Source: a virus (taxonomy: Duplodnaviria > Heunggongvirae > Uroviricota > Caudoviricetes). From it: 39,501 nt of DNA. Location: IMG/VR virus record IMGVR_UViG_2671180547_000005; one strand, given 5' to 3'. Below are positions 1-20,811 of the stretch, piece by piece. Position 1 is the stretch's first letter. The number at the start of each line of letters is the position of its first letter. The notes beneath the pieces are model-generated. The model was given only the letters and a program-made list of their open reading frames with translations. It did no database searches and was not told where the DNA came from. Both the position numbers and the translations under genes were made by a program.

Positions 1-70
1 TCGGTTTACGGGAAACGGTAAACAGGGCGGCGAATGCTCTGCCATCGGACGGCACCGCCGTTGCCGCGAA
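1..70. repeat. Left inverted-repeat copy of the invertible tail-fibre segment; positions 1-14 are the inner half of a gix-like site
   Basis: Positions 1..70 match the reverse complement of 1250..1319 with one mismatch (position 38). Window starts at the core dinucleotide, so the outer half-site is off-window. Confidence 0.75.
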
Positions 71-362
71 TAGACTCGCCACCCCAAGAAATATTAATGG
101 GGTTCCCTTTGACGGGACGCAGGACATAAACATCACTTCTGGTATAACACAGCAGGATGCGGATTCCCGATATATCCAGGATATCAGGCTGGGAGCAGAG
201 AACAGGCAGGTAATGTACGGTGGGGCATATTACTCTGCGTACGGTAATGTTATGGCAGGCCTGCAGATTGACAGTAAAGTTGATGCTTCAAACGATTTTA
301 TAGCATTCAGACCCCTGCAAAAATTAGTCGGAGGTACATGGATTACGGTATCTCAGTTATAA
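3..362 (+). CDS. Tail fibre protein, variable C-terminal segment (5' partial; constant part off-window)
   Basis: Open frame from position 3 to TAA at 360..362; the first ~23 aa (GLRETVNRAANALPSDGTAVAAN) are shared with the inverted alternative segment, then diverge. Confidence 0.7.
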   Translation, partial: GLRETVNRAANALPSDGTAVAANRLATPRNINGVPFDGTQDINITSGITQQDADSRYIQDIRLGAENRQVMYGGAYYSAYGNVMAGLQIDSKVDASNDFIAFRPLQKLVGGTWITVSQL

Positions 363-413
363 ATAGTCAGTAAATAATATATTTTAAAACAGATTTATTT
401 CCAGGAGGATTTT

Positions 414-935
414 ATGGAACTAAAAAATATAACCCGTTATTATCCTGAAAATATGCCATATGGTAATAATGTTCAGTATTTCCAGAGTGAAGATGGTAAG
501 GATTTCTACGAATCCCTGCCATTATTCACCAAAAAATATAAACTTTGCATAACACCTGACAGCGGCGTTATCTGCTCAATATCACAGGACGCCTCGGCGC
601 TGTATCCTGCGGGGTTTTCTGTGGTTGAGGTCGATGAACTCCCTGAAGGCACGGATATTTCAGGAAACTGGAAGTTTGATAATGGCATAATCTCCCGTAT
701 TCCGGTTAACTACGCAAGAAAACTGGAAGCAATGCGCCAGTCATATCTTAATCAGGCATATGAAAAAATTAATGACTGGAGAACGGAGCTACAACTGGGC
801 ACCATCAGCGATGAAGACAGAGCAGCACTTACCCAATGGATGGCATACATCAGTCAGGTGAAGAAAATGGAACTACCCGCCATTAAAACAGAAGCTGAAT
901 TTAACGCCATTAAATGGCCTGAGCAGCCACAGTAA
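414..935 (+). CDS. Tail fibre assembly chaperone (Tfa / Mu U-like)
   Basis: 173 aa directly downstream of the fibre segment; C-terminus has the W-x-x-Y ... I-x-WP pattern typical of Tfa proteins. Confidence 0.7.
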   Translation: MELKNITRYYPENMPYGNNVQYFQSEDGKDFYESLPLFTKKYKLCITPDSGVICSISQDASALYPAGFSVVEVDELPEGTDISGNWKFDNGIISRIPVNYARKLEAMRQSYLNQAYEKINDWRTELQLGTISDEDRAALTQWMAYISQVKKMELPAIKTEAEFNAIKWPEQPQ

Positions 936-940
936 TAAAG

Positions 941-960
941 AAGGCCGGAAGGCCTTCTGA
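941..960. terminator. Hairpin between convergent tfa and alternative fibre segment
   Basis: Perfect 8-bp stem AGAAGGCC / GGCCTTCT with a 4-nt loop, AU-rich flanks, between two convergent stop codons. Confidence 0.4.
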
Positions 961-966
961 ATATCA

Positions 967-1319
967 TTATATACTTGCAGCCGTCACCCATGCTCCATTT
1001 AACAGATACTGCAACGGCCGGTAATACACGCCGCCGACGTTATCTGCCGTATTCTTACCGACATCCTGTACTTTAATTCCGGTAAGAACATTGCCGCCCC
1101 CCAGATTCAGATCCCAGCTTTCCCATGTTCCGGGCATATGTGCGGTCACCGACCCCAGTCTTATGGCGGTTACTGTTCCTGATGAGATAGTGATATCCTG
1201 CGTCCCGTCAAAGGGAACACCATTAATTGTGTGGGCATTTGCCAGCCTGTTCGCGGCAACGGCGGTGCCGTCCGATGGCAGGGCATTCGCCGCCCTGTTT
1301 ACCGTTTCCCGTAAACCGA
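967..1319 (-). CDS. Alternative tail fibre C-terminal segment (silent here; fused to the constant part after inversion)
   Basis: Minus-strand frame is open from the stop at 1351..1353 down to TAA at 967..969; begins with the same ~23 aa as the plus-strand segment and ends with a different ~95 aa tail. Confidence 0.6.
1250..1319. repeat. Right inverted-repeat copy of the invertible segment
   Basis: Reverse complement matches window 1..70 (69/70). Confidence 0.75.
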
Positions 1320-1331
1320 GGTTTTCAGGAA
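1306..1331. promoter_or_regulatory. gix/hix-like 26-bp recombination site (right copy)
   Basis: TTCCCGTAAACC-GA-GGTTTTCAGGAA: near-palindromic 12-2-12 layout, close to the Mu gix sequence as I recall it, immediately upstream of the invertase gene. Confidence 0.65.
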
Positions 1332-1396
1332 AGCCAGGATTAACTCTGTTTTATTCCTCATGCGACAATTCCGGCTTTTTATAATAAGGAAATCGT

Positions 1397-1969
1397 ATGC
1401 TGATTGGGTATATCAGGGTGTCAACAAATGACCAGAATACGGCGCTACAAAGAAATGCGCTGGAATGTGCAGGATGTGAGCTGTTTTTCGAAGACAGAAT
1501 AAGCGGTAAGACAAGGGAGCGTCCCGGACTTAAACGCGCATTAAAGCGACTCCGGCCAGGGGATACCCTGCTGGTCTGGAAACTGGATCGCCTTGGACGC
1601 AGTATGCAGCACCTTGTCCTTTTAACAGAAGAACTCCGGCAACGCGGCGTTAACTTCCGCAGCATTACGGACAATATTGATACATCCACTCCCATGGGAC
1701 GTTTCTTTTTCCATATAATGGGCGCGCTGGCGGAAATGGAGCGGGAACTCATTATTGAACGTACACGCGCGGGTCTTGCTGCTGCCCGTGCTCAGGGGCG
1801 TCATGGCGGCAGACCTCAGAAACTGACAGAGAAAGAGCGGGAGCAAATCGCCCGTTTGCTGGCTAATGGCGAGTCCCGTAAACAAATCGCACTGATATTT
1901 GATATTGGCCTTTCCACCCTTTATCGTTATTTTCCTGCCTCACCAGCTCCGTCACCAAAAGTACCGTGA
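1397..1969 (+). CDS. gin: Serine DNA invertase, Gin/Hin/Cin/Pin family
   Basis: 190 aa; N-terminal MLIGYIRVSTNDQ with catalytic Ser, resolvase core, C-terminal HTH; adjacent to the gix-like site. Symbol given by analogy to Mu. Confidence 0.9.
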   Translation: MLIGYIRVSTNDQNTALQRNALECAGCELFFEDRISGKTRERPGLKRALKRLRPGDTLLVWKLDRLGRSMQHLVLLTEELRQRGVNFRSITDNIDTSTPMGRFFFHIMGALAEMERELIIERTRAGLAAARAQGRHGGRPQKLTEKEREQIARLLANGESRKQIALIFDIGLSTLYRYFPASPAPSPKVP

Positions 1970-2054
1970 CGCTTTTTTGAATTTCCGCAAAACACATATT
2001 TTTCAGCGGTCGCTATTCTGACTCTGTTTAATTCAGAAACAGGCAGAAAAGACG

Positions 2055-4109
2055 ATGTCAGACTCCAAGTGGAAAATGCTCTCCGCCATGCCCGGAGAGT
2101 TTTCAGTCAAGGTTGCCGGTGGCACGGTGGCATTTATTGAAAGCCCTTTCCGCCCTTCGGGTAATAAAGGGGGGATCACCTTCGCAGACTGCGTGATCCG
2201 CTTCAGCACGAAAGAGCCATTATGGGTAATGCCGGTATCCGGTAATCCCAGTGCAGAAATCACCAGTTCAGGCGTGACTGGCATCATTCCAATCACATCT
2301 GACGTGGCCGGAACGCTCACGCCCTCCGACTGGAATGCACCGGATAACGCCGGGCCTTCCGGTAGCACGAATGGCAGCAGTTCAGAGCCGGAATATTACT
2401 TTGTTGTCATTCTCGCGGGTCAGTCAAATGGCATGGCCTACGGCGAGGGGCTGCCGTTACCGGATTCGTTTGACCGCCCGGACCCACGCATTAAGCAACT
2501 GGCACGCCGCAGTACGGTAACGCCCAACGGTACGTCGTGTACATACAACGACATCATTCCGGCAGACCACTGCCTGCATGATGTTCAGGATATGAGCGGG
2601 ATAAACCACCCGAAAGCTGATCTGGCAAAAGGCCAGTACGGGACTGTCGGTCAGGGGTTGCATATTGCCAAAAAACTGCTTCCCTATATCCCACAGAATG
2701 CCGGGATACTTCTGGTGCCCTGTTGTCGTGGCGGGTCAGCATTCACCACTGGAGCCGACGGCTCATTCAGTGAGGCCAGCGGTGCTTCCGCTGATTCTTC
2801 ACGCTGGGGGGCCGGTAAACCTCTGTATCAGGACCTGGTAAGCCGCACCAAAGTCGCGCTGGCGAAAAACCCGAAAAACAAACTTCTGGCTGTGGTCTGG
2901 ATGCAGGGAGAGGCAGACCTTGCCTCAGGAAGCCAGCAGCATAATAGTTTATTCACGGCCATGGTTCAGCAGTTCAGAACTGACCTGGCTCCGCTTGCTG
3001 CGCAGTGCGTGAGTGGAAATGCCACCACGGTGCCGTGGATTTGCGGTGATACCACGTATTACTGGAAAAACGCTGGCACCGATAAATATGAGGCAGTATA
3101 CGGTGGCTACAAAGGCAAGGAAGCACAGAAAATTTTCTTTGTACCGTTCCTGACGGATGAGAATGGACAGAGCACGCCAACGAATGCTCCGGCGGAAGAC
3201 CCGGATATTGTGGCTGTCGGGTATTACGGTGCAGCATCCCGAACCCAGGGCAGTTTTGTTTCGACACAGCGTGACAGCCATTTCAGCTCATGGGCACGCA
3301 GGGGCGTCATTTCAGACCGTCTGGCCTCAGCTATTATGCTCCATGCAGGGCGCACGGCTGAACTGATGCGTGGGCAGACCGTGACACCACCGGATGAGAA
3401 GCCGTCACCTGATACACCATCAAAACCGTCCACGCCACCCGCAGACACCACGACGATGAGTACGCTATTTGCTTACCGGGCATCTGAGTCTGAAGGACGG
3501 TTGACACCACAGGGTTGGGCTGCCGGAGGTGGCAAGGCTCAAATCGTGGATGATGCCGGAGCCAGCGGGGGTAAGGCAATGAAACTGACCAAGGAAACAG
3601 GAAGAGCCCCCTGGTACCTTGAGCATGATGCTGGTAATGGTGCGGACCTGCTGGGTAAAGGTGGTCTTGTCAGTTGTCGTTTTAAACTCGATGGCGCGCT
3701 TACGGCTAATCAGTACGCACTGGCGCTGTACTGGCCGGTTTCTGCCCTGCCGCAAGGGGTTACTCTGGAAGGAAATGCCGGTCATAACCTGCTGGCATCG
3801 TTCTACGTACAGAGCGATGCCACAGACCTTAACGTGATGTATCACAAAGGAAACACGGCGCAGAACACGAAGCTGGGGTCATTCGGCGCATTTAATAACG
3901 AATGGCATACGCTGGGCTTCCGTTTTGCCGGTAACAACAGTATTGAGGTGACGCCGGTCATTGATGGTAAGGACGGGACACCATTCATGCTGTCGCAGTC
4001 TCCGGTCGGCACGTTTACGGCAGACAAGTTGCGCGTGACCGATATCACTAAAAATGCGACTTACCCGGTACTGATTGACAGTATCGTGGTGGAAGTGAAT
4101 AACGCGTAA
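2055..4109 (+). CDS. NanS-p-like sialate O-acetylesterase (SASA/SGNH domain) with Pro/Thr linker and C-terminal lectin-like domain
   Basis: 684 aa; VVILAGQSNGMAYGEG matches the GQSN motif of the sialate O-acetylesterase family; size and modular layout resemble prophage NanS-p proteins. Confidence 0.6.
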   Translation: MSDSKWKMLSAMPGEFSVKVAGGTVAFIESPFRPSGNKGGITFADCVIRFSTKEPLWVMPVSGNPSAEITSSGVTGIIPITSDVAGTLTPSDWNAPDNAGPSGSTNGSSSEPEYYFVVILAGQSNGMAYGEGLPLPDSFDRPDPRIKQLARRSTVTPNGTSCTYNDIIPADHCLHDVQDMSGINHPKADLAKGQYGTVGQGLHIAKKLLPYIPQNAGILLVPCCRGGSAFTTGADGSFSEASGASADSSRWGAGKPLYQDLVSRTKVALAKNPKNKLLAVVWMQGEADLASGSQQHNSLFTAMVQQFRTDLAPLAAQCVSGNATTVPWICGDTTYYWKNAGTDKYEAVYGGYKGKEAQKIFFVPFLTDENGQSTPTNAPAEDPDIVAVGYYGAASRTQGSFVSTQRDSHFSSWARRGVISDRLASAIMLHAGRTAELMRGQTVTPPDEKPSPDTPSKPSTPPADTTTMSTLFAYRASESEGRLTPQGWAAGGGKAQIVDDAGASGGKAMKLTKETGRAPWYLEHDAGNGADLLGKGGLVSCRFKLDGALTANQYALALYWPVSALPQGVTLEGNAGHNLLASFYVQSDATDLNVMYHKGNTAQNTKLGSFGAFNNEWHTLGFRFAGNNSIEVTPVIDGKDGTPFMLSQSPVGTFTADKLRVTDITKNATYPVLIDSIVVEVNNA

Positions 4110-4110
4110 G

Positions 4111-4146
4111 CAGGATAAAAAAATGCCGCCGGTAAGGGAAAACAAG
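4111..4146 (-). terminator. Intrinsic terminator oriented for leftward transcription
   Basis: 10-bp stem TGCCGCCGGT / ACCGGCGGCA; the 7-nt T-run follows the hairpin only on the minus strand. Confidence 0.5.
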
Positions 4147-4253
4147 AAACCGGCGGCAAAAAGATCGTTATATCCAAAGCAAAAAATGCAGTGCACCTTT
4201 TTACCTAACAGATATTACCGGTGTCAACACCATGTCAATAATTGGGAGGGATA

Positions 4254-4436
4254 ATGACATTTTTACAGCTTATTTTATTGTATTTCTGCACGGCAGTATG
4301 TGCGTTATATCTGGTGAGTGGTGGTTATAAGGCCATCAGAAATTATGTTCGCCGCAAAATTGAGGACGCAGCAGCTGAAAAACTCAGTAAAACAGCGCAG
4401 GTAACTCCGCTCCCAAAAGACCCGACCCAGCCCTGA
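4254..4436 (+). CDS. Small hydrophobic (probably membrane) protein, unknown function
   Basis: ATG at 4254 preceded by GGGAGGG; 60 aa with a hydrophobic N-terminus followed by a charged tail. Confidence 0.45.
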   Translation: MTFLQLILLYFCTAVCALYLVSGGYKAIRNYVRRKIEDAAAEKLSKTAQVTPLPKDPTQP

Positions 4437-4471
4437 TTGCAGGGCTTTATTCCCGCATAAGGAGGATATAC

Positions 4472-4726
4472 ATGCCAGAAATTAAAGGCACCGTCACTGA
4501 AGACCTGGTAAAACAGGCACTGTATTCCGGTGAAGTAAATAAGTTGCTGAAAGCGCAGGTCCGCAAGGATTTTGAGGCACAAATCGACACTTACGTTGAT
4601 GAAGTGCTGGCAAAACTTATTGGGCCAGCAGTTGCGGCCAGTGATGCTGATAATGAGCCGAAAACCGACGCGCAGCCAGAGCAACCAGACCCGGCTCAGC
4701 CCGGAACTGACAGTACCATGATGTAA
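4472..4726 (+). CDS. Small acidic protein, unknown function
   Basis: Strong RBS AAGGAGG 6 nt upstream; 84 aa with an acidic Pro-rich C-terminus. Confidence 0.45.
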   Translation: MPEIKGTVTEDLVKQALYSGEVNKLLKAQVRKDFEAQIDTYVDEVLAKLIGPAVAASDADNEPKTDAQPEQPDPAQPGTDSTMM

Positions 4727-4783
4727 CAATACAAACCGGTGGTGTCCTCTGCCGGTTTGACACTAATGAAAACATCTTTGCCG

Positions 4784-4812
4784 CTATCCAGCCATATGTA
4801 ATCGCTGGATAG
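4784..4812 (+). terminator. Hairpin after the small two-gene cassette
   Basis: Perfect 9-bp inverted repeat CTATCCAGC / GCTGGATAG with an 11-nt loop, followed by a U-rich tract; a second hairpin lies at about 4732..4758. Confidence 0.4.
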
Positions 4813-4893
4813 TATTTCGTATTCAGAAATATAGCTGCTTATGGAGCAGTCAATCCTGCTTCCCCATCCGGGCAGGCAAATGAACCGGTATCA

Positions 4894-5187
4894 TTAGTCC
4901 GATTCACGCTTTTGTAGAATCGTTCCCAGAATGCTATACAGCTCATTAGCCTGTTGCTCCATCATTGAGACGGAGGCTATACGGTGCAAAGTGATTTCAG
5001 GAGGTGGCACACCTCCATCTTCTTGCTGTGGAGGAAAAACATAAGATTTAATAAAAAAGTTGAAGCATATGAACTCTCCCGCACTCGAACTGTATTTGCA
5101 GGCATCTGAATAATCGGAAAAATAATCATTATAGATTTCCGCATTTTCAATCATTTTTCGATTTCTCGTCGTTACATGATTGTCCAT
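4894..5187 (-). CDS. Hypothetical protein in an AT-rich segment (moron candidate)
   Basis: 97 aa; ATG preceded by AAGAGG; region is visibly AT-rich compared with the rest of the phage. Confidence 0.4.
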   Translation of the reverse strand: MDNHVTTRNRKMIENAEIYNDYFSDYSDACKYSSSAGEFICFNFFIKSYVFPPQQEDGGVPPPEITLHRIASVSMMEQQANELYSILGTILQKRESD

Positions 5188-5376
5188 AGCAGCCTCTTAC
5201 GCTGGCAATTAACCAATTGACTTCTATAAATTAGTTGATTTGTTTGCTTTGCGGTATTCAAATGTACAATCATTCAGCACTTATGCGTTACAGCACCGTT
5301 TAAAATTAGTGATCAAACTCATAAATTTTCGCTAATGACATTTCGTGTTATTTGTTGTATCAATTAAATAAATCAA

Positions 5377-5400
5377 ATCGATCGTTTTTGTCGATCGATT
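5377..5400. promoter_or_regulatory. GATC pair in a palindromic context upstream of com-mom
   Basis: GATC at 5380..5383 and 5393..5396 within TCGATCG ... TCGATCGA, about 45 bp upstream of the com start; Mu mom is controlled through GATC methylation. Confidence 0.4.
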
Positions 5401-5443
5401 GAGTGATAAAGATATCAACAACAAAGCAGGAGGTTATGCGGCC

Positions 5444-5644
5444 ATGTATCGAAACATACGGTGCCGACATTGTAACAAGCTACTGGCACGAGCCAGCTTC
5501 AGTTATCTGGAAGTTAAATGTCCGCGCTGTAAAACCCTCAATCAAATCACATCTCAGAGCGCCACAGAGCACCCCACATACACAAGGAAATCCTGTCGTG
5601 GGGAACAGAAAGCAAGTTACATCCCGTATCATCAGCACGCCTGA
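5444..5644 (+). CDS. com: Com-like zinc-finger translational activator of mom
   Basis: 66 aa from the internal ATG with an upstream AGGAGG; CxxC ... CPRC zinc-finger pattern as in Mu Com. Confidence 0.7.
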
Positions 5645-6335
5645 ACTTATTCACTATAACGACAATATCGTCGGTTATGGCTCCCGTGAGTTACGGGTTG
5701 AGACAATAAGTTGCTGGCTGGCCCGGCTGGTCGTCGTCAATAAACATTACAGCCATCGTTTCGTAAATAATTCCTACCTTCATCTGGGCATATTTTCAGA
5801 ACGGGAGCTGGTTGGCGTAATGCAATGGGGTTATGCCCTTAATCCAAACAATGGTGCACGCGTCGTAACTGGCACGCAGAACCGCGAATATATGGAGCTT
5901 AACCGGTTATGGCTGCATGACTGTATGCCGAGAAACTCCGAATCAAGGGCAATCAGTTACGCGCTCAAACTAATCAGACAACTTTATCCGCAGGTGCAGT
6001 GGGTTCAGTCGTTTGCAGATGAGCGTTGTGGCTGTCTTGGTGTCGTGTACCAGGCAAGCAATTTTGATTATGTAGGCAGTCATGAAACAACATTCTATGA
6101 ACTTGATGGCGAGTGGTATCACGAGATTTGCAAGAATGCAATCAAACGAGGAGGACAGCGAGGTGAACATCTGCGGGCTAATATCGACAGAGCCAGTGTT
6201 CATAAATTCCGTCAGTTTCGTTACATCCGGTTTCTGGACAAGAGAGCCAGAAAACGCCTTAACACAAAGCTATTCAAAGTCCAGCCTTACCCAAAACCAC
6301 AAACAGTTAAAACTGGTTTGAAAGAGAGTGAATGA
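5598..6335 (+). CDS. mom: Mom-like DNA modification protein
   Basis: Overlaps the 3' end of com in another frame; GTG at 5598 preceded by AAGGAAA; about 245 aa; last gene before the phage end, as in Mu. Start codon inferred. Confidence 0.55.
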
Positions 6336-6379
6336 ACGCTTAAAAACTCATTCTAAAACTCAAAAGAAAAGCGCCGATT

Positions 6380-6463
6380 TAGTATCAAATAAGTTGCGTA
6401 TCGGCGTTTTTCAGCGGTATCAAATGAAATGCAAATCGGTATCAAAAAAATCGCCGCGCTATA
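6380..6463. repeat. Phage right-end (attR-like) cluster of three closely spaced transposase-site repeats
   Basis: AGTATCAAATAAG (6381), CGGTATCAAATGA (6416), CGGTATCAAAAAAA (6437); inferred terminus about 6456..6463 (...GCGCTATA). Confidence 0.6.
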
Positions 6464-6465
6464 GA

Positions 6466-6504
6466 CAGCCTAAGCGGCTGCTGACCTCCCTGACCATGCT
6501 GTAA
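6466..6504 (+). pseudogene. Detached 3' end of IS66 tnpB (QPKRLLTSLTML-stop)
   Basis: Reads in frame as the continuation of the tnpB that ends at 38853 on the other phage flank (…LLEGIDWR + QPKRLLTSLTML). Confidence 0.5.
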
Positions 6505-6548
6505 ATCTCTTTATCCTGGTTGTCACAGAATAAGCCCGGTAAAATACG

Positions 6549-6853
6549 NNNNNNNNNNNNNNNNNNNNNNNNNNNNNNNNNNNNNNNNNNNNNNNNNNNN
6601 NNNNNNNNNNNNNNNNNNNNNNNNNNNNNNNNNNNNNNNNNNNNNNNNNNNNNNNNNNNNNNNNNNNNNNNNNNNNNNNNNNNNNNNNNNNNNNNNNNNN
6701 NNNNNNNNNNNNNNNNNNNNNNNNNNNNNNNNNNNNNNNNNNNNNNNNNNNNNNNNNNNNNNNNNNNNNNNNNNNNNNNNNNNNNNNNNNNNNNNNNNNN
6801 NNNNNNNNNNNNNNNNNNNNNNNNNNNNNNNNNNNNNNNNNNNNNNNNNNNNN
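6549..6853. other. Assembly gap (305 N)
   Basis: Run of n. Confidence 1.
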
Positions 6854-7221
6854 ACGTCAGCGGGACCAAGACTGTTTTTTGTGGCAAGCGTCCCCAGACC
6901 AAGATAACCACGGGCCAGACGCTGGGCCTCCGCACCGGCATCAGCAATTTCTTTCAGGTTATTTTTCCGGGAAAAGGCATTCGCAGCGATAATGGCTTTA
7001 ATGGACAGCGTAAGCTGGTTTAACTGCGCCTTATCCGGCTGAATACTGGCTTCAGCCAGAATATTCAGCAGTTCGGCCTGGAGAATATTCAGCCAGTCCT
7101 GACCAATCCAGCTGATACCTTTTTGTCCGTCACCTTCGGTAAACCAGGTGGTGGTATTACTCTGCGCCGGTGCCAGCGCAGGCATATTCGCCACGCCGGA
7201 ATTATTATCAACATGAAACAT
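6854..7221 (-). CDS. Tail fibre protein, N-terminal constant part (truncated by the gap)
   Basis: Minus ORF starting at 7221 runs into the N-gap; sits after the gp48-like gene in Mu order. Confidence 0.6.
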
Positions 7222-7781
7222 TAAATAGTCTCCTCTTCATGGCTGTTTGCATAAACGTAAATAAACGTCTGCCATGCAGGCTTATAACGGTTCAGAATAC
7301 ATTCCAGCGCACCGCCTTCATAAATACGCAGCGGCGTGAGAATATCATCCAGCACATTCATATTCCGGTAGCCGGTTTCACTGTTAATCGTGACAATACT
7401 GACCCACTGCGAATCCGGTGAGGGCTGAATGTCAATCTGATAACCAAACTCCGCCGCAAACCGGATATAAAATTCACGGTTCAGCGAGGGCTTCATCCGG
7501 TATTTATTTCCGGCATAACGCTGTCGCTCCGTGAGGGTGGCTCCGGCCATATCACACTCGGGAAGCCCGAGATAACGCTCCCAGTCTTCCAGCAGCAGGC
7601 GCGACGTGTCAGGGAAACGCTCGGCAAGCAGCTGTTTACCCGTCCAGGATACACGCGCTGTCGAATGACTGAGGCCCAGACATAATGATGCCAGTACGGA
7701 TGACGGACGCTTGTCCCATGCCAGCCCGTCAGGCAGTAACTGCAACAGGGCGCGCTGATGCGGGGTCAGGGTTACAGCCAT
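7221..7781 (-). CDS. Mu gp48-like tail protein
   Basis: 186 aa between the baseplate J-like gene and the fibre gene; start overlaps the upstream stop. Confidence 0.6.
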   Translation of the reverse strand: MAVTLTPHQRALLQLLPDGLAWDKRPSSVLASLCLGLSHSTARVSWTGKQLLAERFPDTSRLLLEDWERYLGLPECDMAGATLTERQRYAGNKYRMKPSLNREFYIRFAAEFGYQIDIQPSPDSQWVSIVTINSETGYRNMNVLDDILTPLRIYEGGALECILNRYKPAWQTFIYVYANSHEEETI

Positions 7782-8854
7782 GTGATTTCTCCTACCGTCA
7801 GCAGCTCACTGTCTCCCGCCTGAACTGACGTCAGCGGACTGCGCACTTCAAAATCCTCCAGATTTTTCACCCCTGCCACCGCCCGCCAGAAAGACGACGG
7901 CAGAACCAGACCGCCGGGCCGGGATTCGTTATACAACAGGTCGGTCAGCGCCTGTTTTACGGCCGCCTGATTCTCCGGTGTTTTCGGGATGATCCTGATG
8001 CTGAAGGGCACCGGCTTATTGGTCAGTTTAAACACGGTCACCGTCGGCCCCAGAGGCTGTCCGACAGGCTGGCCGGTCGCCGGATCATCATGACTGCGGA
8101 TATAATCCGCCACCCGCTGAACATCACCGTCACCGGGGAAAATATCCGGGTTATTATCCTGAACAAACGTTACCCCCACGCTGCCCGCCTGCGGCCATTC
8201 CGGGCGGCACCATGCCCGCGTCACGCCCGGCACTTCACGCGCCCAGCGTTCAAAATCATACTGCGTGCCGCCGGACGGTGGATTCTGCACCCGGAAAACC
8301 AGACGGGAAAGCAGCTCCGGCACGGTTTCCACATCCGCACCACCGGTGATCCCCGTTCCGGTCACCGTGGCCGTCTGGTTGATCCCCGCCTGCGGTGTGA
8401 TAAATGTCAGTTTTGTCCCTGCCGGGGCATTCCCCGCACGACCGGCACTTTCGGCTTCCACACTGACATTCAGCGTACCGGCCTTACCGGTCAGGGAGGT
8501 GGTGATACGGTAAACCACGCCATCACTTCGCTGGAGAAGCACACCTTCCTTGATCCCCGCATCCGTGGTCAGCATCAGCTGAACCGGCCCGTCCCCCCGA
8601 GAGGCAGGCTTACGCATGACGCCCCAGAATGCACAGTGTTTCAGCAGTTCGGCTTCATCGGCTTCGGTCGGGATGATCTGACGCGCAATCCAGGCCAGAT
8701 GCTCATGCTCCTGAGCAGATAACCCTGCCTGAGCGTAAGCAATGGCATTCAGGGTGGTTTCATTCACACCCGGCTGCGAGCCGGGCAGGCGCTGGCTGAT
8801 ATCCTGCTGTGTCTGCGTGATTAACTGTGCCAGCGGTAAAGGCTGATAAGGCAT
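7772..8854 (-). CDS. Baseplate J-like protein (Mu gp47)
   Basis: 360 aa; position and size. Confidence 0.7.
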   Translation of the reverse strand: MPYQPLPLAQLITQTQQDISQRLPGSQPGVNETTLNAIAYAQAGLSAQEHEHLAWIARQIIPTEADEAELLKHCAFWGVMRKPASRGDGPVQLMLTTDAGIKEGVLLQRSDGVVYRITTSLTGKAGTLNVSVEAESAGRAGNAPAGTKLTFITPQAGINQTATVTGTGITGGADVETVPELLSRLVFRVQNPPSGGTQYDFERWAREVPGVTRAWCRPEWPQAGSVGVTFVQDNNPDIFPGDGDVQRVADYIRSHDDPATGQPVGQPLGPTVTVFKLTNKPVPFSIRIIPKTPENQAAVKQALTDLLYNESRPGGLVLPSSFWRAVAGVKNLEDFEVRSPLTSVQAGDSELLTVGEITWL

Positions 8855-9291
8855 TACTCCCCCTTAAGATCAGCATAAAAAATCATGGGCCTCACTGAAC
8901 CATCAGGCAGGGTTATGCGCACCGAAAGCGCCAGCCGCGCGTGTCCCACACGTTCTGCATGACAGACCACGGATGACGCCACGCCATCCTGACTGAGCCA
9001 GCCCAGCGCCTCATCCGCGTAAGCACGGGCACGGCTTATCACCGAGGCCAGCGTTTTTTCCCGGCTGAGAAGCCACAGACGGGAGCCAATGGGGCGCGGG
9101 CGAAAACTGTCTCCCCACCATCCCCGGCGGTCGCGCGTACCGTCAGGGATTTCATCCGATGCCAGCGCCCGGCGGTCAGTAAACAGCGAAATCAGAACGG
9201 CCGTCAGCAGACTGTCATCCGTCAGCAAGTCGGCACCGTTCAGTTGCAGCGAACCGCACCCCTGATCCCATACAATTGCAATATCAGCCAT
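8854..9291 (-). CDS. Baseplate protein (Mu gp46-like)
   Basis: Start set at the ATG giving MADIAIVWDQ, overlapping the upstream stop by 8 nt. Confidence 0.6.
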   Translation of the reverse strand: MADIAIVWDQGCGSLQLNGADLLTDDSLLTAVLISLFTDRRALASDEIPDGTRDRRGWWGDSFRPRPIGSRLWLLSREKTLASVISRARAYADEALGWLSQDGVASSVVCHAERVGHARLALSVRITLPDGSVRPMIFYADLKGE

Positions 9292-9898
9292 TCTCCGGCG
9301 CTCCTGTCTTACTGCCTTTGCCGTTATCCTGATGCACATGGCCGGAATAGGTGATCCCGGCAATAACGGCATCAGACATCGTGAACAGCCCGTCTGATTT
9401 ACCTGTACCATCAAGCACGAAATTACCCTTAACATGCAGGTTTTTATCCACCGTCACATTGCCCGTAAAGGTGGCCTCCGGCGTATCCACCCGCATCCCC
9501 TCATCGGCGTAAATCTCCAGCATTTTGCATGTCACAATAATGCGACCATCCTTTGTTAACCGTATCCGGTGCCCCTCATGGTGATACACCCCCGTATCTC
9601 CGGCTGTGAGTCCGGTCGGGCGGCTGCGCCGGTCTTCCACCACAAGCACCACAGTCTGATCCCGCTGTCCGCCCAGACAGGCAAAAAAGGTTTCCGCACC
9701 CGGCAGGGGAACGCTGATCTGCCCGTACTGCTGGGGACGCTCCACATCATCAAAGGTTTCGCCGTCCATGCCGGTGAGCTGCACATTCTGCATTTTCAGT
9801 TCGTCATGTGTGCCGGTCAGAACGCCCCGGCCAAACAACAGGCGAATACCGCGCGTTACCGGGGCAATCAGGCGGCTGAACACTTCATCATTCATCAA
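9284..9898 (-). CDS. Baseplate spike/assembly protein (gpV-like, Mu gp45)
   Basis: 204 aa; position and size. Confidence 0.65.
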   Translation of the reverse strand: MMNDEVFSRLIAPVTRGIRLLFGRGVLTGTHDELKMQNVQLTGMDGETFDDVERPQQYGQISVPLPGAETFFACLGGQRDQTVVLVVEDRRSRPTGLTAGDTGVYHHEGHRIRLTKDGRIIVTCKMLEIYADEGMRVDTPEATFTGNVTVDKNLHVKGNFVLDGTGKSDGLFTMSDAVIAGITYSGHVHQDNGKGSKTGAPENG

Positions 9899-11012
9899 AG
9901 CTGATCCCCTGTTTTTTCATCTGCTGGCGAATAAAGGCATCAACATCGTCACCGGAACCACCCCGGCCCTTACTGTCCGGCTCTGCCGGAACGATAAAGC
10001 CGTCACGCGGTGCCAGTACCAGCCGGGTGACTTCCCCGTTATGTTCATCAAGTAAAAACTCCACCTGACAGACCAGCAGTTCAGTCTGTTCTATACCGAA
10101 ACGCAGGGCTGAAACACCGGTCAGCAGATTGACATCCCATAACCGGCCATCATCCCGGAACCAGCCACGCACGGTGGCAGAAAACCGTTCTGAACGGGCA
10201 ATCGCACGGCGCATTTCACGCAGGGCACGCTGCCGTGCACCGGTGGTGTCTGTCTGTTGATCGGCGAGGATGATTTTCGACCGGTAGCGGCCGATCTGCT
10301 CATCACTGATGACGCCCACAGGTGCTGCCAGACGGGCGGCGGATTCGCTGTCTCCCCGTTTGCCACCACCGCGCCCGTGTCCCCGGACACGGTATTCGCT
10401 GTATCGTCCTCGCCAGTCCGTGTTGTAATCGGCATCAAGCAGGTTATCTCCCAGCACCAGTCTGTCCGTCTGCTGGCTTCCTGCCTGGGTGAACACCAGA
10501 TCGCCGTCAGCATTACTGGTCACCAGCACCCCGCGATGCCGGGCAGCACGGGTCAGCGCATCCGCCACGGTTTCTGAGTTTTCCAGCGTAAAAGAGCTGA
10601 AGGGGCGTGCAGCCGTGTCGTCGTTAACCTGCCAGCGCACGGCTATCCCGAAGGGCGCACATAAATCTGCGGCAATCTGTGCCAGCGTCCGGTTGCGCCA
10701 CTGGCTGCCGGGATGGATGGCGGCACAGTCCACCAGGTCGCCGGTTTTATCCCGACCGCTGATGCTGATCTGATGACGGGTTGCACTGATCCGCTGACTG
10801 ACCTGATCCAGCCAGCCACTGATGACCGTCTGCCCGTTAATTCTGAGCGTCAGGGACTGACCGGTTCGCAGGGCTGAGGGGATGCGCTCACCGGGCAGCA
10901 TCAGCCCCAGTTCAAACGACCCGGCCAGATGCTCCAGCGAGCGACGGACGCTGACCGTCAGCCAGCCGGAAAAAATACTGCCACCGATATACAGTTCAAT
11001 CCTGCTGCTCAC
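9888..11012 (-). CDS. Tail/baseplate hub protein (P2 gpD-like, Mu gp44)
   Basis: 374 aa; position between the circularisation protein and the spike. Confidence 0.65.
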   Translation of the reverse strand: MSSRIELYIGGSIFSGWLTVSVRRSLEHLAGSFELGLMLPGERIPSALRTGQSLTLRINGQTVISGWLDQVSQRISATRHQISISGRDKTGDLVDCAAIHPGSQWRNRTLAQIAADLCAPFGIAVRWQVNDDTAARPFSSFTLENSETVADALTRAARHRGVLVTSNADGDLVFTQAGSQQTDRLVLGDNLLDADYNTDWRGRYSEYRVRGHGRGGGKRGDSESAARLAAPVGVISDEQIGRYRSKIILADQQTDTTGARQRALREMRRAIARSERFSATVRGWFRDDGRLWDVNLLTGVSALRFGIEQTELLVCQVEFLLDEHNGEVTRLVLAPRDGFIVPAEPDSKGRGGSGDDVDAFIRQQMKKQGISFDE

Positions 11013-12354
11013 TGATCACCTCCACGCTGCGGCCACCCGGAACAAAAACCGGATCGGGGATATTGTTTCTGCGGACAAAATACTGCCAGCGACTGCTGTT
11101 GCCGGTGGCACGGTACAGCGTGACCAGTGCCGGTTCGGTGGTGCGAACCATGACCTGAAAAGCACCGGGAAGATGCACGCTCCGTGTGGTTAAATCTTCT
11201 GTCAGCGCAAGCCCTGCATCACGTAATGCAAGGGCAGTCCCGGTATAGCCCTGTGCGGACAGATCCAGCACCTGTTGTTCCATGGCATCGCTCAAATCCC
11301 GGTTGATACGCTGCACATCAGCAGAACTTTCCAGCCAGGCCAGTCCGCCCGAACGGTCAGTATCCTGAACGTGCGTCGTATTCTGCCGGATGACCTGATC
11401 CAGCAGTTTTCCGAGCGTCTGTGCCTGCGACACCAGGGTTGCACTCTGCATCACGCTCCGCAGCAGACGGATATTTTTCTGTGCCGCAGGCGTCAGGCCA
11501 ATCAGGCGCTGTGGATCATCCTGTTCGCTGAGGGTGTAACGCAGGGAGGAAAGTGTGCGGTACAGCTGCGGCATGGCCTGCTCTGCCATGCTGTCACGGT
11601 TTGTGGTCAGGCTGCCGGACGGCGTTCCGGCTTTTCCGGTCAGAGACAGGGAAGGATCGCCGGGCAGCCCGGTCAGCACGGCAAACATTCCGGCCAGCGA
11701 TTCAGCCATGCGACGGGGCGCATTAATCAGGGCGGCGGCATTGCCTTTCAGGGCAGTAAAACTGGCCGTAAAGGCACTGATATCCTGCACAATCCCCATC
11801 CCCGAAACGGCATTCTCCAGTGCATCAATCTTATCGCTGATGGTGTCGGTCATGGCCTGTACATCATGCAGACCGTCTGAAATCACCGTCCAGCCGTCTG
11901 AAAGCGTGTTAAACAGCTGATTCATTGCTGAGCCGCTTTTCTGCTCCAGCGCAGCTGCCGTATCTTCTGCCACCGCAGGGGCGGTATCGTCACTGGCGGG
12001 GATCACGTTGATCGTGAACTCAACCGTTCCCTGCTCGCTGGCGTTATAACGGCTTTCAAAGCTGTTTATCAGCACGTTTAACGTGCCGTAATCCGGGTGC
12101 ATCAGTTCACCGGCACCGGGTGCACGCAGCGCATCACGCAGGCGGCTTCGCTGTGTCTGAAGATCGTCTCCGGTCACCAGAACCGTGAATGTGAACTCCG
12201 GGAGTTTTGGCCCCAGATCATCCGCACCGCCGCTTTCACGCAGTGGGTATTCACGGCGCACAATGTTACGTCCGCCCCGTTCCCGCTGCTCCTGATAAAC
12301 CAGGAACGGTACGCCACGAAAGGAGCCACGCCCCGGCGTGTCAGTAGAGGCCAT
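10996..12354 (-). CDS. DNA circularisation protein N-like (Mu gp43)
   Basis: 452 aa immediately after the tape measure gene. Confidence 0.65.
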   Translation of the reverse strand: MASTDTPGRGSFRGVPFLVYQEQRERGGRNIVRREYPLRESGGADDLGPKLPEFTFTVLVTGDDLQTQRSRLRDALRAPGAGELMHPDYGTLNVLINSFESRYNASEQGTVEFTINVIPASDDTAPAVAEDTAAALEQKSGSAMNQLFNTLSDGWTVISDGLHDVQAMTDTISDKIDALENAVSGMGIVQDISAFTASFTALKGNAAALINAPRRMAESLAGMFAVLTGLPGDPSLSLTGKAGTPSGSLTTNRDSMAEQAMPQLYRTLSSLRYTLSEQDDPQRLIGLTPAAQKNIRLLRSVMQSATLVSQAQTLGKLLDQVIRQNTTHVQDTDRSGGLAWLESSADVQRINRDLSDAMEQQVLDLSAQGYTGTALALRDAGLALTEDLTTRSVHLPGAFQVMVRTTEPALVTLYRATGNSSRWQYFVRRNNIPDPVFVPGGRSVEVISEQQD

Positions 12355-14398
12355 AGTTCCCTCCGTTCCAGACGTTCACATCCAGGCCATGCTGTGCGGT
12401 ATCATCCACATCAATACTGCGCGCCCGCCAGCCTTCAGGGGCAACAAGCTCCACCCGTGCGGCGGTTTTCGCGGTGGCCTGTCCGCCGTTTTCGTCACTG
12501 CCGCCACGCAGTTTCTGCCAGGCCTGCGTCAGCCAGCCCCCCAGATAATCACCGAGATAGCTGCCCACCGTGGAACCAATGGCAACCCCGACCGGACCGG
12601 CAGCCGCCCCCAGCGCGCCACCGGCGATACTTCCGGCAAGGGAACCCACGGCACCGGCTTTATCGGCTGCACTGGCGCTGCTGTCCAGCAGTACAGGAGC
12701 CGCCATGGCACCGGCCCACAGGGCACCACCACCCAGCCGACCGGCACCACGGAACAGCCCGGCAAAACGCCCCAGCCCCATGCGGTTTCCGGCCGCCGTT
12801 AGCAGACCACCGGCACGGCTCATCATACGACCGAAGAAGCCCTGTTTACCGGCACTCTCCGCCAGTTGCTCACCGGCAGTCACGACGGTCGTGACACCCC
12901 GTCCACGTCCGGGGCCGCGTTTTTTACGGCCGCGCACGGTTTTGCCGTCACCGCTGACCACCACATCCCCGCCACCTGAGGCCAGGCCACCCGCAGGCCA
13001 ATTGGTGACCAGCACGGGCTGAACGGCAGCCGGATTTACCCCGGTAAGGAAATTCAGGAACCGGCCAGCGCGTCCGGGCTGCGTTCCCGGTACAGTGGTC
13101 TGCGGTTTGCGGAAGGGCGACGTCAGCACGGAGGTCATCGCCATGCCATAGCGTAAGGGGGTTGCGCCGAGACGTAATGCCCCCGTCCCCGCAAACCTGA
13201 GCACCTTCAGCGCACGGGAGGCGAGATACATATACATCAGGTACTTTGCGGCGGTCTGCGCACCCTGACCAATGCGATCCAGCGCATCGCCATAACCGGC
13301 GTCGCGCAGTGCCTGAAGCGTTTCCCTGACTTTCTGAATGACCCGGTAAAAGCCGGTCGCAGCGTCTCTGGCATACTCAAATCCCTGATTCAGGGCTGAG
13401 GCCGTCTGTGTGGCCAGCTTATCCTGTAAGCCGCTTTTCTGTGCCGCATCAGCATAATCCAGAAAGCCTTTCAGGCTCTTTTTCAGGCTGTCAAACGGTC
13501 CCTTTGCCATCACCTCGCGGGCAAATCCGTCCCAGACATCGCCCATCATGGACGTCATTCCCGTCCAGGAATTCATGGCGTTTTTCTGGGCACCTTTTGC
13601 CTGTTCGGCCATCACCTGAAATAACAGGCGAATGCTGTCCGGTCCCAGTTTTCCTTTCTCGCCTTTCTCACGGATGATCTTCTGGTTTACACCCAGCTTA
13701 TCGGCCAGCAACTGGTAAACGTTAATCCCGTATCCGGTCAGAATATTGGCGTCCGCTGCCTGGATACTCTGGCGGGCAAACATCTGTTTGAGTTGCAGGG
13801 ACGCACCCTGTGCATCTGACAGTGACCAGCCGTGATAGCCGCCCTGATCCTGAAGCATGGTAATAAAGCGACGGGCTTCCCTGTCACTCATACCGAACCC
13901 GCGACTGGAGGCGTATTCCTGCATAACCCCCGCCAGCCCCCAGGTGGTGTCTTTGGCGTTCTGTACCGCCCAGGCTTTCACTGCTTCCGTTTTTGCCGTA
14001 TCGCCATGATTAATGGCGTTGAGACGCAGAATATAGTTCTCCATCTCTGCGGCCGGGCGGATAAAGGCTTTATTAAACCCGTAGACCGCAGCCCCTCCCG
14101 CCAGCATCCCGTAAAGGTTGCTTATCCGCCCGATGGTGCCGGTAATGCTGCCCTGAAGGCGGTCAAAATCTGACGTCACCGTGCGGATACTGCCACGAAC
14201 ACCGGCAAGCGTTCGCTGCATACGGGAGCCGACAAGTTCTGTCTCCTGACCGGCACGACGTGCTGCATTTCCAAGACCACCCAGCCCCGTCCTGCCGGAA
14301 CGGGAGAATGCCCCCAGCTCCTGTGACCACTGGCGGGATTTGGCAGAAATATTGCCGAGTAAATCGACAATCAGGGAGGCTTTCAGGTTTTTTGCCAT
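12341..14398 (-). CDS. Tail tape measure protein
   Basis: 685 aa; Gly/Ala-rich with repetitive C-terminal region; position after the chaperone. Confidence 0.8.
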   Translation of the reverse strand: MAKNLKASLIVDLLGNISAKSRQWSQELGAFSRSGRTGLGGLGNAARRAGQETELVGSRMQRTLAGVRGSIRTVTSDFDRLQGSITGTIGRISNLYGMLAGGAAVYGFNKAFIRPAAEMENYILRLNAINHGDTAKTEAVKAWAVQNAKDTTWGLAGVMQEYASSRGFGMSDREARRFITMLQDQGGYHGWSLSDAQGASLQLKQMFARQSIQAADANILTGYGINVYQLLADKLGVNQKIIREKGEKGKLGPDSIRLLFQVMAEQAKGAQKNAMNSWTGMTSMMGDVWDGFAREVMAKGPFDSLKKSLKGFLDYADAAQKSGLQDKLATQTASALNQGFEYARDAATGFYRVIQKVRETLQALRDAGYGDALDRIGQGAQTAAKYLMYMYLASRALKVLRFAGTGALRLGATPLRYGMAMTSVLTSPFRKPQTTVPGTQPGRAGRFLNFLTGVNPAAVQPVLVTNWPAGGLASGGGDVVVSGDGKTVRGRKKRGPGRGRGVTTVVTAGEQLAESAGKQGFFGRMMSRAGGLLTAAGNRMGLGRFAGLFRGAGRLGGGALWAGAMAAPVLLDSSASAADKAGAVGSLAGSIAGGALGAAAGPVGVAIGSTVGSYLGDYLGGWLTQAWQKLRGGSDENGGQATAKTAARVELVAPEGWRARSIDVDDTAQHGLDVNVWNGGNYGLY

Positions 14399-14401
14399 GG
14401 G

Positions 14402-14596
14402 TTACTGCTTCGTTCTGAGAATTTTTTCGGTCTGTCGGCAGTGCCGGTAAAGCTGCGATAAGGGGAGGTTAAGCGCCCACTCCGGGCCGCTTTTTGTCAC
14501 CATCCCCAGCACAATTGCGGCTTCTTCAATCTGATCCCGGCACTGCATCTGGTCGCCCCCGTTCAGCGACCAGCTTTCCGGCCATCGCGGAATCAA
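14402..14596 (-). CDS. Frameshift extension of the tail assembly chaperone
   Basis: Overlaps the 3' end of the chaperone ORF by 71 nt in the +1 frame and stops 4 nt before the tape measure start; a G5 run lies in the overlap. Confidence 0.45.
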   Translation of the reverse strand: MIPRWPESWSLNGGDQMQCRDQIEEAAIVLGMVTKSGPEWALNLPLSQLYRHCRQTEKILRTKQ

Positions 14597-15002
14597 GCAG
14601 GCTTACTGCCGCCATCAGTCGGGAGAGATCGCGCTCGCTGAGCTGTCCTATCTGACGCGGAGACAATGGCCCCTCAATCTGGCCGACAGCGGCAATCTGA
14701 CGGCGCAGCAGCGCAATGCCGCGCAGTGCCGGTGAGGCCACAAGAACCGGACCGTTTCGGGTTTCCATAAGACGCTCGGCCTCGCTCTCCGCATCAATGC
14801 TGTCTTTTGCCGTCAGTTCGCGGAAGGTGACGCGGTATTCACGGGATTCCCCGAACGGCAGACCGTCGAGCAGATCCACATAGCCGTTCGCCAGTTGTTC
14901 AGCCAGCCCGGCGGTGCGGGGATCGCCGTCTTCAAGTGCATCCCGGATAGCCTCCATCACGGCCTCGTCAGAAACCGCCGTTTTTTTCTTACGTGTGCTC
15001 AT
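14526..15002 (-). CDS. Tail assembly chaperone (Mu gp41-like)
   Basis: 158 aa acidic protein between the tube and tape measure genes. Confidence 0.65.
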   Translation of the reverse strand: MSTRKKKTAVSDEAVMEAIRDALEDGDPRTAGLAEQLANGYVDLLDGLPFGESREYRVTFRELTAKDSIDAESEAERLMETRNGPVLVASPALRGIALLRRQIAAVGQIEGPLSPRQIGQLSERDLSRLMAAVSLLDSAMAGKLVAERGRPDAVPGSD

Positions 15003-15016
15003 TACATTTTTCCTGA

Positions 15017-15382
15017 TTACTGGACACGGGTACTGGTGGCGCTGGCGAACTTCGCGGAGATATCACCACCACCGTCAAGCGAGGCCGGTTCACTGCTCCA
15101 GGCCTTCGTCATCATGTGGACTTCACCGGTATCGGCCACGAACTCAATCGTGACCGCAGTCCAGGTGTTGATTTCATCGGCAGCCGGTGAACCTTCTCCG
15201 CCCGCCGGGAATTTACAGTCCAGCGTCGCCTCACGGGGTTTCTCGCGATAGCCGTAAACTTTCGCGCCTTTCACCACTTCACGCTCAAAGCCGGACGGGG
15301 AGAACGTGGCCCCCTCAAGGGTGTCGTACTCCTGCCCGTTCACACGGATGGTGGCCGTGCCCTGATACTGTTTTCCGCTCAT
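15017..15382 (-). CDS. Tail tube protein (Mu M-like)
   Basis: 121 aa directly downstream of the sheath gene. Confidence 0.75.
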   Translation of the reverse strand: MSGKQYQGTATIRVNGQEYDTLEGATFSPSGFEREVVKGAKVYGYREKPREATLDCKFPAGGEGSPAADEINTWTAVTIEFVADTGEVHMMTKAWSSEPASLDGGGDISAKFASATSTRVQ

Positions 15383-15390
15383 GCCTTACC

Positions 15391-17171: not shown

Positions 17172-17174
17172 CTG

Positions 17175-18510: not shown

Positions 18511-18553
18511 ATTTGCCCTCCGCAGGGGCCGGGCCGTAAGCCCGGCTCACCGT

Positions 18554-20634: not shown

Positions 20635-20811
20635 ACCGGCAGCATAAGCCGGGTATTTTTGGGGCTGGTTTTGCGGGACTTCAGAAAGTGCTGACAGGGG
20701 GGGAATGAGAAAGGCGCTTCACGCAGATTTTAAAGCCCGTTAAATACAGGTTAGAAAATCACGACACGCGCCTGAAGGGGGTAAGGTAATACGTTTGCAT
20801 ACCTTAAACCA

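Follow-up and report, generated by a model that had tools for sequence, protein, structure and literature searches.

Direct-oriented ends of an Sp18-type Mu-like prophage in a draft scaffold probably reflect a contig joined back to front

Results

Overview

The 39,501-nt stretch of DNA analysed here (hereafter the window) carries one intact Mu-like prophage of the Sp18 type, 38.6 kb in length, which was inserted once, in tnpB of an IS66-family element, and becomes colinear once the part left of the N gap is flipped. In the record, the two prophage ends stand in direct orientation. With a probability that we put at about 85%, judged from the sequence, this arrangement is an assembly artefact, the draft scaffold having taken up the 6.5-kb contig left of the gap in reverse. 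The apparent inversion is thus probably not new biology.

Layout of the window

The window is composed of contig A (1-6548) and contig B (6854-39501), linked by 305 N; the join consists of N only, with zero bases reading across (Table 1). No sequence common to the two contigs was found at E<=1e-3, and their phage DNA adds up to exactly one genome (38,633 bp vs. 38,634 bp of a complete prophage), including 161 nt of the fibre gene that are absent from the window. The left flank (639 nt), the prophage (38,633), the right flank (85) and the excess of the gap over the missing piece (305 - 161) sum to 39,501.

Table 1. Features of the window, with coordinates as given in the record (strand "." = not stranded).
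Feature	Position	Strand	Remarks
Contig A	1..6548	+	Prophage right-end module (invertible fibre segment, invertase, cargo genes, com, mom, right end) and 85 nt of IS66
gixL inner arm	1..37	.	Crossover dinucleotide TC (centre of gixL) at 1-2; arm matches 1283-1319 as an exact inverted repeat
Fibre gene, 3' (variable, Sv-like) part	1..362	+	ORF
Tail-fibre assembly chaperone	414..935	+	Within invertible segment; identical protein in related loci has PF02413 Caudo_TAP
Alternative fibre tip (S'v-like)	967..1195	-	Joins constant part upon segment flip
gixR crossover site	1306..1331	.	TTCCCGTAAACC GA GGTTTTCAGGAA; inverted-repeat arm ends at 1319
Serine DNA invertase (Gin/Hin type)	1397..1969	+	Adjoins segment; identical protein has PF00239 Resolvase and PF02796 HTH_7
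684-aa SASA/DUF6645 protein	2055..4109	+	Cargo gene between invertase and com/mom; PF03629 and PF20350 on identical protein
com	5444-5644	+	Identical protein annotated Com; com/mom Pfam: PF10122, PF25680
mom	5598-6335	+	Identical protein annotated Mom; com/mom Pfam: PF10122, PF25680
Right end (attR)	6380..6463	-	R3 6380-6389, R2 6415-6424, R1 6437-6446; terminus ...GCGCTATA at 6463
IS66 3' piece	6464..6548	+	3' end of IS66-family tnpB and spacer before tnpC; first 4 nt GACA, target duplication
N run	6549..6853		305 N; scaffold gap, sole link between A and B; no other N run in window
Contig B, phage part	6854..38862	-	Repressor, ner-like gene, MuA, MuB, then Gam, Mor, lysis, head and tail genes, to baseplate
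Fibre gene, 5' (constant) part	7221..6854	-	122 codons, runs into N gap
MuB ATPase	34550-35482	-	Identical gene in L008/L009; MuA/MuB Pfam there: PF02316 + PF09299, PF09077
MuA-type DDE transposase	35565-37652	-	Identical gene in L008/L009; MuA/MuB Pfam there: PF02316 + PF09299, PF09077
Left end (attL)	38689..38862	-	L3 38689-38698, L2 38741-38750, L1 38836-38845; terminus 38862, minus strand 5'-TATAACCAGG...
Chimeric ORF, 107 aa	38850-39173	-	TnpB of IS66, broken by phage
IS66 5' piece	38863..39368	-	tnpA remnant and phage-truncated tnpB; 38863-38866 is the other GACA copy
IS3-family element, 3' end	39369..39501	-	Inserted in IS66 tnpA; window and contig end inside it

Three of the four contig ends were located in repeats. 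On the left, contig A begins with the TC at the centre of gixL, where a 37-bp exact inverted repeat has its outer edge; the right boundary of the contig lies 85 nt into multicopy IS66, where the sequence is 100% identical to IS66 copies that number up to 18 per E. coli genome. Contig B ends on its outer side inside the IS3-family element, and on its inner side 161 nt before the inverted repeat, not on the repeat itself. Since window position 1 falls on the gix crossover dinucleotide, a point absent from the earlier note on this sequence, and two other ends fall in the IS66 and IS3-family elements, the contig boundaries are explained as repeat-induced breaks; the gixL inverted repeat, multicopy IS66 and the IS3-family element are repeats where short-read contigs break. 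Similar breaks were observed in related records: the end of a Logan contig from a sibling strain lies, by arithmetic, ~27 nt into the same inverted repeat, and the public scaffold KB732958.1 (L022) has an N gap exactly between the two copies of the inverted repeat.

Prophage ends and insertion target

Exact TTTGATACCG occurs five times in the window, always on the minus strand, vs. ~0.07 copies expected. Four of these copies lie at the phage ends (R1, R2, L1 and L2 in Table 1) and the fifth at 19081, whereas the third repeat of each end is degenerate (two mismatches in R3, one in L3). The outermost repeat at either end starts 17 nt from the terminus, giving the arrangement TATA-N13-motif. Motif starts were found 17, 39 and 74 nt from the mom end and 17, 112 and 164 nt from the repressor end. 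The earlier note, made from the sequence of the window, had reported three TTTGATACCG-type repeats per end, on the same strand and in the form TATA-N13-repeat, as well as their wide spacing at the repressor end and close spacing at the mom end. Both observations were confirmed, with coordinates that differed from ours by at most 1 base.

The termini were set at 6463 and 38862, where homology to many other insertions stops; for the right terminus, this homology break was seen against at least 35 other insertions. In the record as given the two sets of end repeats are direct, and they become inverted only once contig A is flipped. Inverted end repeats are the arrangement in 35 of 35 comparators.

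When the flanks were compared with an intact IS66 (in L003), base 2738 of this element was the last one in the left flank and base 2735 the first one in the right flank, leaving a 4-bp overlap, GACA. Because the flanks are adjoining halves of one IS66 tnpB with this overlap, they indicate a single insertion and a single prophage. The flanking duplication was 4 bp in 6/6 insertions, the other five having AACA, TACG, TAAG, GTAT and TAAA. The chimeric TnpB is also present in ~108 draft assemblies and in the closed genome CP176614.1, which belongs to the same lineage and has a left junction identical to that of the window. The limit of IS66 homology is at 39368; in L008, the gene adjoining this IS3-family sequence encodes a 385-aa HTH_Tnp_1/rve transposase. 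At the same end of the prophage, the MuA and MuB genes adjoin the repressor/ner region. Proteins identical to those of the prophage carry the Mu Pfam families HTH_Tnp_Mu_1, Mu-transpos_C, Phage-MuB_C, Gam, GemA, Mor and Gp36/37/45/46/48.

Fibre gene and invertible segment

The window carries a Gin-type invertible fibre segment. Its two 26-bp crossover sites, which, judged by the gix consensus, resemble the gix sites of Mu, are in inverted orientation and have the 2-bp cores GA and TC. The gixR site is the sole full gix-like 26-mer in the window. The complete gixL, TTATCGATAACG TC GGTTTACGGGAA, is found at 5989-6014 of L001, and window positions 1-14 represent its inner half. Beyond its exact part, the inverted repeat at gixL extends imperfectly to ~142, with 95% identity between the arms 1-79 and 1241-1319 and 84% between 93-142 and 1178-1227. 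The invertase gene is intact.

Both orientations of the segment occur in nature. A 296-aa fibre is present in L001, L026-L034 and others, and a 293-aa fibre in L002, L005, L014 and others; in L002, L005 and others the shorter form has the S'v-like tip sequence at its C-terminal end, and the segment of L002 is in the opposite orientation to that of the window. The earlier note had also stated that the N-terminal part of the fibre gene faces the gap on the minus strand (7221 down to 6854), the C-terminal part standing at the window start on the plus strand, and the ORFs bear this out. When 7221..6854, 161 nt from L001 and 1..362 were joined, a 296-aa ORF was obtained which is identical to the L001 fibre.

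Comparison with complete genomes

The prophage was reconstructed as the reverse complement of 6854..38862, followed by 161 nt and by 1..6463, giving 38,633 bp. This reconstruction matched a 38,634-bp prophage in the complete chromosome of E. coli strain 600029 from end to end, at 99.65-99.70% identity. The exception is the 1.35-kb invertible segment, whose orientation in the latter is opposite to that in the reconstruction; the rest is colinear. Contig A aligned in one piece to 6001..12463 of the closed genome L001 at 99.97%. In L001, which has the same G orientation as the window, the reverse complement of window 7627..6854 lies 161 bp upstream of this match on the same strand, and the junction is continuous. 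Contig B gave a single 32,013-bp alignment with the prophage of the closed genome L002 (99.69%).

After the flip, the fibre start lies 6,992 nt from the right end, as it does most often in related prophages. A total of 35 distinct right flanks were counted in the prophage family, and at 35/35 distinct insertion sites in other genomes the fibre start and the right end share a strand, with the fibre start upstream. The proposal of the earlier note that inverting 1..6548 restores a colinear Mu-like genome is therefore supported by the order in complete genomes, by the fibre ORF and by the 6,992-nt distance.

Origin of the apparent inversion

The window is most probably a draft scaffold built from two short-read contigs. 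In the proposed true order, the left part would run from the IS66 5' part through the left end, the early genes and the head and tail genes to the constant part of the fibre gene. It would be followed on the right by the 161 bp absent here, the invertible fibre segment, the invertase, com/mom, the right end and the IS66 3' part. The contig with the right-end module would have been set back to front beside the N gap, and we infer that it was the scaffolder that flipped it. A reversed right-end contig would explain both why the repeat sets look direct and why the fibre gene is split by 6.5 kb. Breaks and misjoins of short-read scaffolds at invertible segments and IS copies show the same types of boundaries and the same N-only join. 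The typical scaffold break is, however, a plain gap, whereas here the flanking contig would also be reversed, which is less common. Four observations speak against an artefact: scaffolders seldom flip a 6.5-kb contig, the gap has 305 N and not 161, contig B stops 161 nt before the inverted repeat, and the left boundary of contig A is a site-specific crossover, where a real invertase-mediated breakpoint would also fall.

A real inversion, in which breakpoints at or near gixL and in IS66 just past 6548 flipped the 6.5-kb G-gin-mom-attR module, is unlikely. It would take the order in the record at face value, and it would fit the position of window base 1 on the exact gixL crossover dinucleotide, the intact invertase gene and the internal rearrangements of related prophages seen in closed genomes such as JKHS016. 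Its second breakpoint, however, would have to fall in the ~305-nt gap within IS66, and intact IS66 contains no gix-like site (>=19/24 half-site matches). Moreover, the join is N only, all contig ends are accounted for by repeats and the arrangement was found in 0/35 independent related insertions. Slightly less probable still is that the N run masks real contiguous sequence, such as a chimeric contig, rather than a scaffold gap. One public collection is described as having N masks over part of its sequence, and 305 equals 161 + 144, so that the run could cover 161 nt of fibre gene and 144 nt of IS66. Yet the window length fits a two-contig scaffold, both outer and both inner ends are at or near repeat boundaries, and the hidden join would still lead from the interior of IS66 to the interior of the fibre gene, which is the signature of a misassembly.

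The two alternatives raised by the earlier note fared worse. That contig A is the right end of one Mu-like prophage and contig B the body and left end of a related one is very improbable, even though some E. coli genomes contain 2-6 copies of the family. Together the flanks make up a single IS66 tnpB target, its halves contiguous and bearing the 4-bp duplication of the family, and the contigs are exactly complementary, with no phage sequence in common; these findings refute the proposal. Both contigs also run from a unique-junction flank deep into the phage, which a collapsed two-copy repeat would forbid. Adjacent inversions are a known outcome of Mu transposition, but an origin by intramolecular replicative transposition of the Mu type is the least probable of all. 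It would leave a second complete phage copy, inverted relative to the first, and breakpoints at the phage termini. It is contradicted by the presence of only one copy's worth of phage and by a breakpoint that lies 6.99 kb from the right end, at the gix site within the fibre gene.

If the recorded orientation were true, the window would present a natural transposable phage immobilised through inversion of one end, maybe by an invertase acting beyond its own segment; with direct-oriented ends the prophage would be unable to transpose and locked in place, and its fibre gene would be severed. A reversed contig, the reading we prefer, carries a different message: where a draft scaffold meets phase-variable fibre segments and IS copies, contigs can end up misoriented, and prophage "rearrangements" read uncritically from such records would lead to false structural variants. 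The analysis also provided the exact termini, the gix sites and the insertion target for one copy of a Mu-like prophage that is common in E. coli.

Relation to Sp18 and Mu

Sequence comparison identifies the prophage as a member of the known family of Mu-like transposable prophages represented by Sp18 of E. coli O157:H7 Sakai. Sp18 (38.76 kb) is colinear with it over the whole length, with 35.4 kb aligned at a mean identity of ~85%, although some early and cargo regions fall to 67-80%. The two share the end sequences TGTAACCAGGTGAATCATTTGATACC... and ...CGCCGCGCTATA as well as the 4-bp flanking duplication. They differ in the left terminus (TATA in the window prophage, TGTA in Sp18) and in the insertion site, which is IS66 tnpB here and sorM for Sp18 in Sakai. 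In the invertible host-specificity region of Sp18, the genes are different from those of Mu (PMC2669165).

With Mu, the prophage has in common the MuA, MuB, Gam, Mor, Com and Mom families, three transposase-binding repeats per end (wide at the repressor end, close at the mom end) and a fibre-tip segment between 26-bp inverted crossover sites beside a serine invertase. A search of a phage collection gave no useful DNA similarity to Mu. The repeat motif differs from that of Mu, the termini of the family are TA or TG...TA instead of TG...CA, and the flanking duplication is 4 bp, compared with 5 bp in Mu. Unlike that of Mu, the invertible segment of the prophage contains a single chaperone gene.

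Inversion of the right-end module restores a colinear Mu-like prophage

The only N run in the window (6549-6853, 305 N) divides contig A (1-6548), which carries the right (mom) end of the prophage, from contig B (6854-39501), which carries the left (repressor) end. The earlier note had described repeats on the same strand at both ends, and this was borne out, with its coordinates off by at most one base. Five exact copies of TTTGATACCG were found in the whole window, all on the minus strand, versus about 0.07 expected. At either end the outermost repeat begins 17 nt from the terminus, which is TATA. The termini were set at 6463 and 38862 because many other insertions of this phage resemble the window up to exactly these positions and no further.

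The proposal of the earlier note that inverting 1..6548 yields a colinear Mu-like genome was supported by the order in the closed genome locus L001, by the restored fibre ORF and by the distance between fibre start and right end. In L001, the reverse complement of window 7627..6854, 161 bp, and window 1..6464 follow one another on one strand. The 161 nt are a fibre stretch absent from the window and were taken from L001 (5840-6000). Joining the reverse complement of 6854..38862, the 161 nt and 1..6463 gave 38,633 bp. Over their full lengths, this sequence and the prophage of strain 600029 (38,634 bp) aligned at 99.65-99.70% identity; the sole difference in order was a 1.35-kb invertible segment in the opposite orientation. 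The joined fibre ORF encodes 296 aa and is identical to the L001 fibre. After the flip, fibre start and right end are 6,992 nt apart, the modal value among related loci. At 35 of 35 distinct insertion sites, fibre start and right end share a strand and the fibre start is the upstream one, whereas in the window as given the two are on opposite strands. The length of 39,501 equals 639 + 38,633 + 85 + (305 - 161), so that the window fits a whole two-contig scaffold.

Contig breaks and origin of the apparent flip

Contig A begins on the core of gixL, one of the two crossover sites of the invertible fibre (G) segment. The two repeat copies match exactly over 37 bp inward of the crossover, which places window position 1 at the outer edge of an exact inverted repeat. 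The last 85 nt of contig A are IS66 sequence, 100% identical to copies found up to 18 times per genome, and contig B ends in an IS3-family element, itself inserted in IS66 tnpA. The other end of contig B, at 6854, does not reach the gix inverted repeat, from which it is 161 nt away, and the gap has 305 N versus 161 nt actually missing. The missing piece is confined to this prophage family and has a median copy number of one per genome; the idea that it is a repeat common to other prophage families, which would explain the early stop of contig B, was rejected. Breaks at the gix inverted repeat also occur in other, independent assemblies. In a sibling strain, a Logan contig stops after about 27 nt of the repeat (a value calculated on the assumption of no indels), and in scaffold KB732958.1 the N gap falls exactly between both copies. 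The apparent flip is most likely an orientation error made in scaffolding contigs that are bounded by repeats, rather than biology.

A real inversion in the strain, with its second breakpoint inside IS66, is very improbable. The anomalous junction consists of N only, the second breakpoint would have to fall in IS66, no more than about 300 nt from 6548, and no related prophage has the arrangement of the window. A secondary gix-like site that would back an invertase-mediated inversion was sought in intact IS66 and none was found. An adjacent inversion of the Mu type needs two phage copies, with breakpoints at phage termini; contigs A and B share no sequence, and this explanation is incompatible with the data. 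The suggestion of two related prophages was refuted by the same lack of shared sequence and by the flanks. Read on the minus strand, the left flank consists of IS66-family tnpA'/tnpB and runs as far as base 2738 of an intact element (in L003), and the right flank begins at base 2735 of that element and continues through the tnpB stop. Together, therefore, the flanks make up one target split into two adjoining halves that overlap by 4 bp, GACA.

Coordinates of features in the window and their counterparts
Feature	Window position	Strand	Remarks
gixL core TC	1-2		full site TTATCGATAACG-TC-GGTTTACGGGAA, complete in L001
gixR	1306-1331		TTCCCGTAAACC-GA-GGTTTTCAGGAA
Chaperone gene	414-935		within invertible segment
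Alternative fibre tip	967-1195		within invertible segment
SASA/DUF6645 protein	2055-4109		between invertase and com/mom
TTTGATACCG, exact copies at phage ends	6415, 6437, 38741, 38836	minus	
Degenerate third repeat copies	6380, 38689		
Right-end GTG ORF	6328-6504		counterparts L001 12327-12884, L041 18927-19130
Right-end junction			...CGCCGCGCTATA / GACAGCCTAAGCGG; IS66 tnpB 3' end to right of slash
Duplication-terminus stretches	38859-38866, 6460-6467		
IS3-family element	39369-39501		L008 8606-9805
"tRNA-OTHER" position	about 21290-21400		equivalent L002 18474-18553
Contig A gene order			fibre 3' part, fibre chaperone, opposite-strand alternative fibre tip, serine invertase, SASA/DUF6645 protein, com, mom, right end
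Contig B phage body		minus	Mu-like; repressor-like gene, ner-like HTH gene, MuA, MuB onward
MuA	in contig B		PF02316 + PF09299
MuB	in contig B		PF09077
Other genes	in contig B		Kil, Gam, GemA, Mor, lysis genes
Head genes	in contig B		Mu-type portal, protease, capsid
Tail genes	in contig B		sheath, tube, baseplate Gp44-48

Target duplication and nested insertions

A 4-bp duplication was present in all six insertions examined (the window and the comparison loci L002, L005, L006, L007 and L049). The direct repeats at five other insertions of the family are AACA, TACG, TAAG, GTAT and TAAA (Sakai). The flanking duplication of Mu is 5 bp, versus 4 bp in the Sp18-type insertions examined, and the termini of these insertions are 5'-TA or TG on the left and ...TA-3' on the right, in contrast to TG...CA in Mu. 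A 5-bp duplication, with the terminal phage base taken as host-derived, failed in four of five cases and again in Sakai; a one-base shift of either boundary yields no 5-bp duplication. The literature searched contained no statement on how long the duplication of Sp18-type phages is.

The IS66 element hit by the phage also holds the IS3-family insertion in its tnpA. In the sister lineage L009 (CWZC01000017.1) the phage insertion is present and the IS3-family insertion is absent. The prophage copy of L004 (NZ_AP045820.1) was itself the target of two IS66-family elements, one ISEc43-like and one ISEc22-like (12448-14864 and 36979-39314), which indicates that phage and IS66 elements repeatedly insert into each other.

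Within the right end of the phage, a GTG starts an ORF that crosses the terminus into host DNA, and in strain DLI.5a PGAP calls this ORF the start of bglJ. The phage right end may give flanking genes a start codon or transcription.

Gene content and relatives of the prophage

The underlying prophage belongs to the Sp18 family, which was already known. Among named prophages, its closest relative is Sp18 of O157:H7 Sakai, which is colinear, about 85% identical and has the same end sequences. Sp18 has been described as intact and Mu-like, with a host-specificity region that is invertible (PMC2669165). The family is carried by about 230 of 5,426 complete E. coli genomes. A genuine internal rearrangement was observed in a related prophage of a closed genome, L006 (NZ_CP147059.1, JKHS016; 22857-31962), with truncated portal and tape-measure genes and with the capsid-to-tail-assembly block inverted between two tape-measure fragments.

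The invertible segment contains two alternative fibre tips and a single chaperone gene, whereas Mu has the chaperones U and U'. Its flipped state gives a 293-aa fibre without a co-oriented chaperone. The 684-aa SASA (sialate O-acetylesterase-like)/DUF6645 protein is identical and conserved in many hosts and is without a Mu counterpart. Hundreds of genomes share identical versions of the right-end module proteins, which thus offer no lineage-specific handle. Between the head-morphogenesis and virion-morphogenesis genes of several related prophages, PGAP calls a "tRNA-OTHER"; scans of the window with ARAGORN and Rfam gave no match, including at this position.

Records of the same insertion

The exact junction 29-mers had no match in genome, viral or metagenome contig collections, and neither junction was present in any complete E. 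coli genome of the RefSeq set. A look-up of the chimeric TnpB found the same left junction in the closed genome CP176614.1, where the left end lies at about 1,015,140, and in about 108 drafts. Over window 28849-39501, comparison locus L008 shows 99.99% identity. CP176614.1 belongs to the same lineage and matches the window at 99.99% identity in its left junction and flanks.
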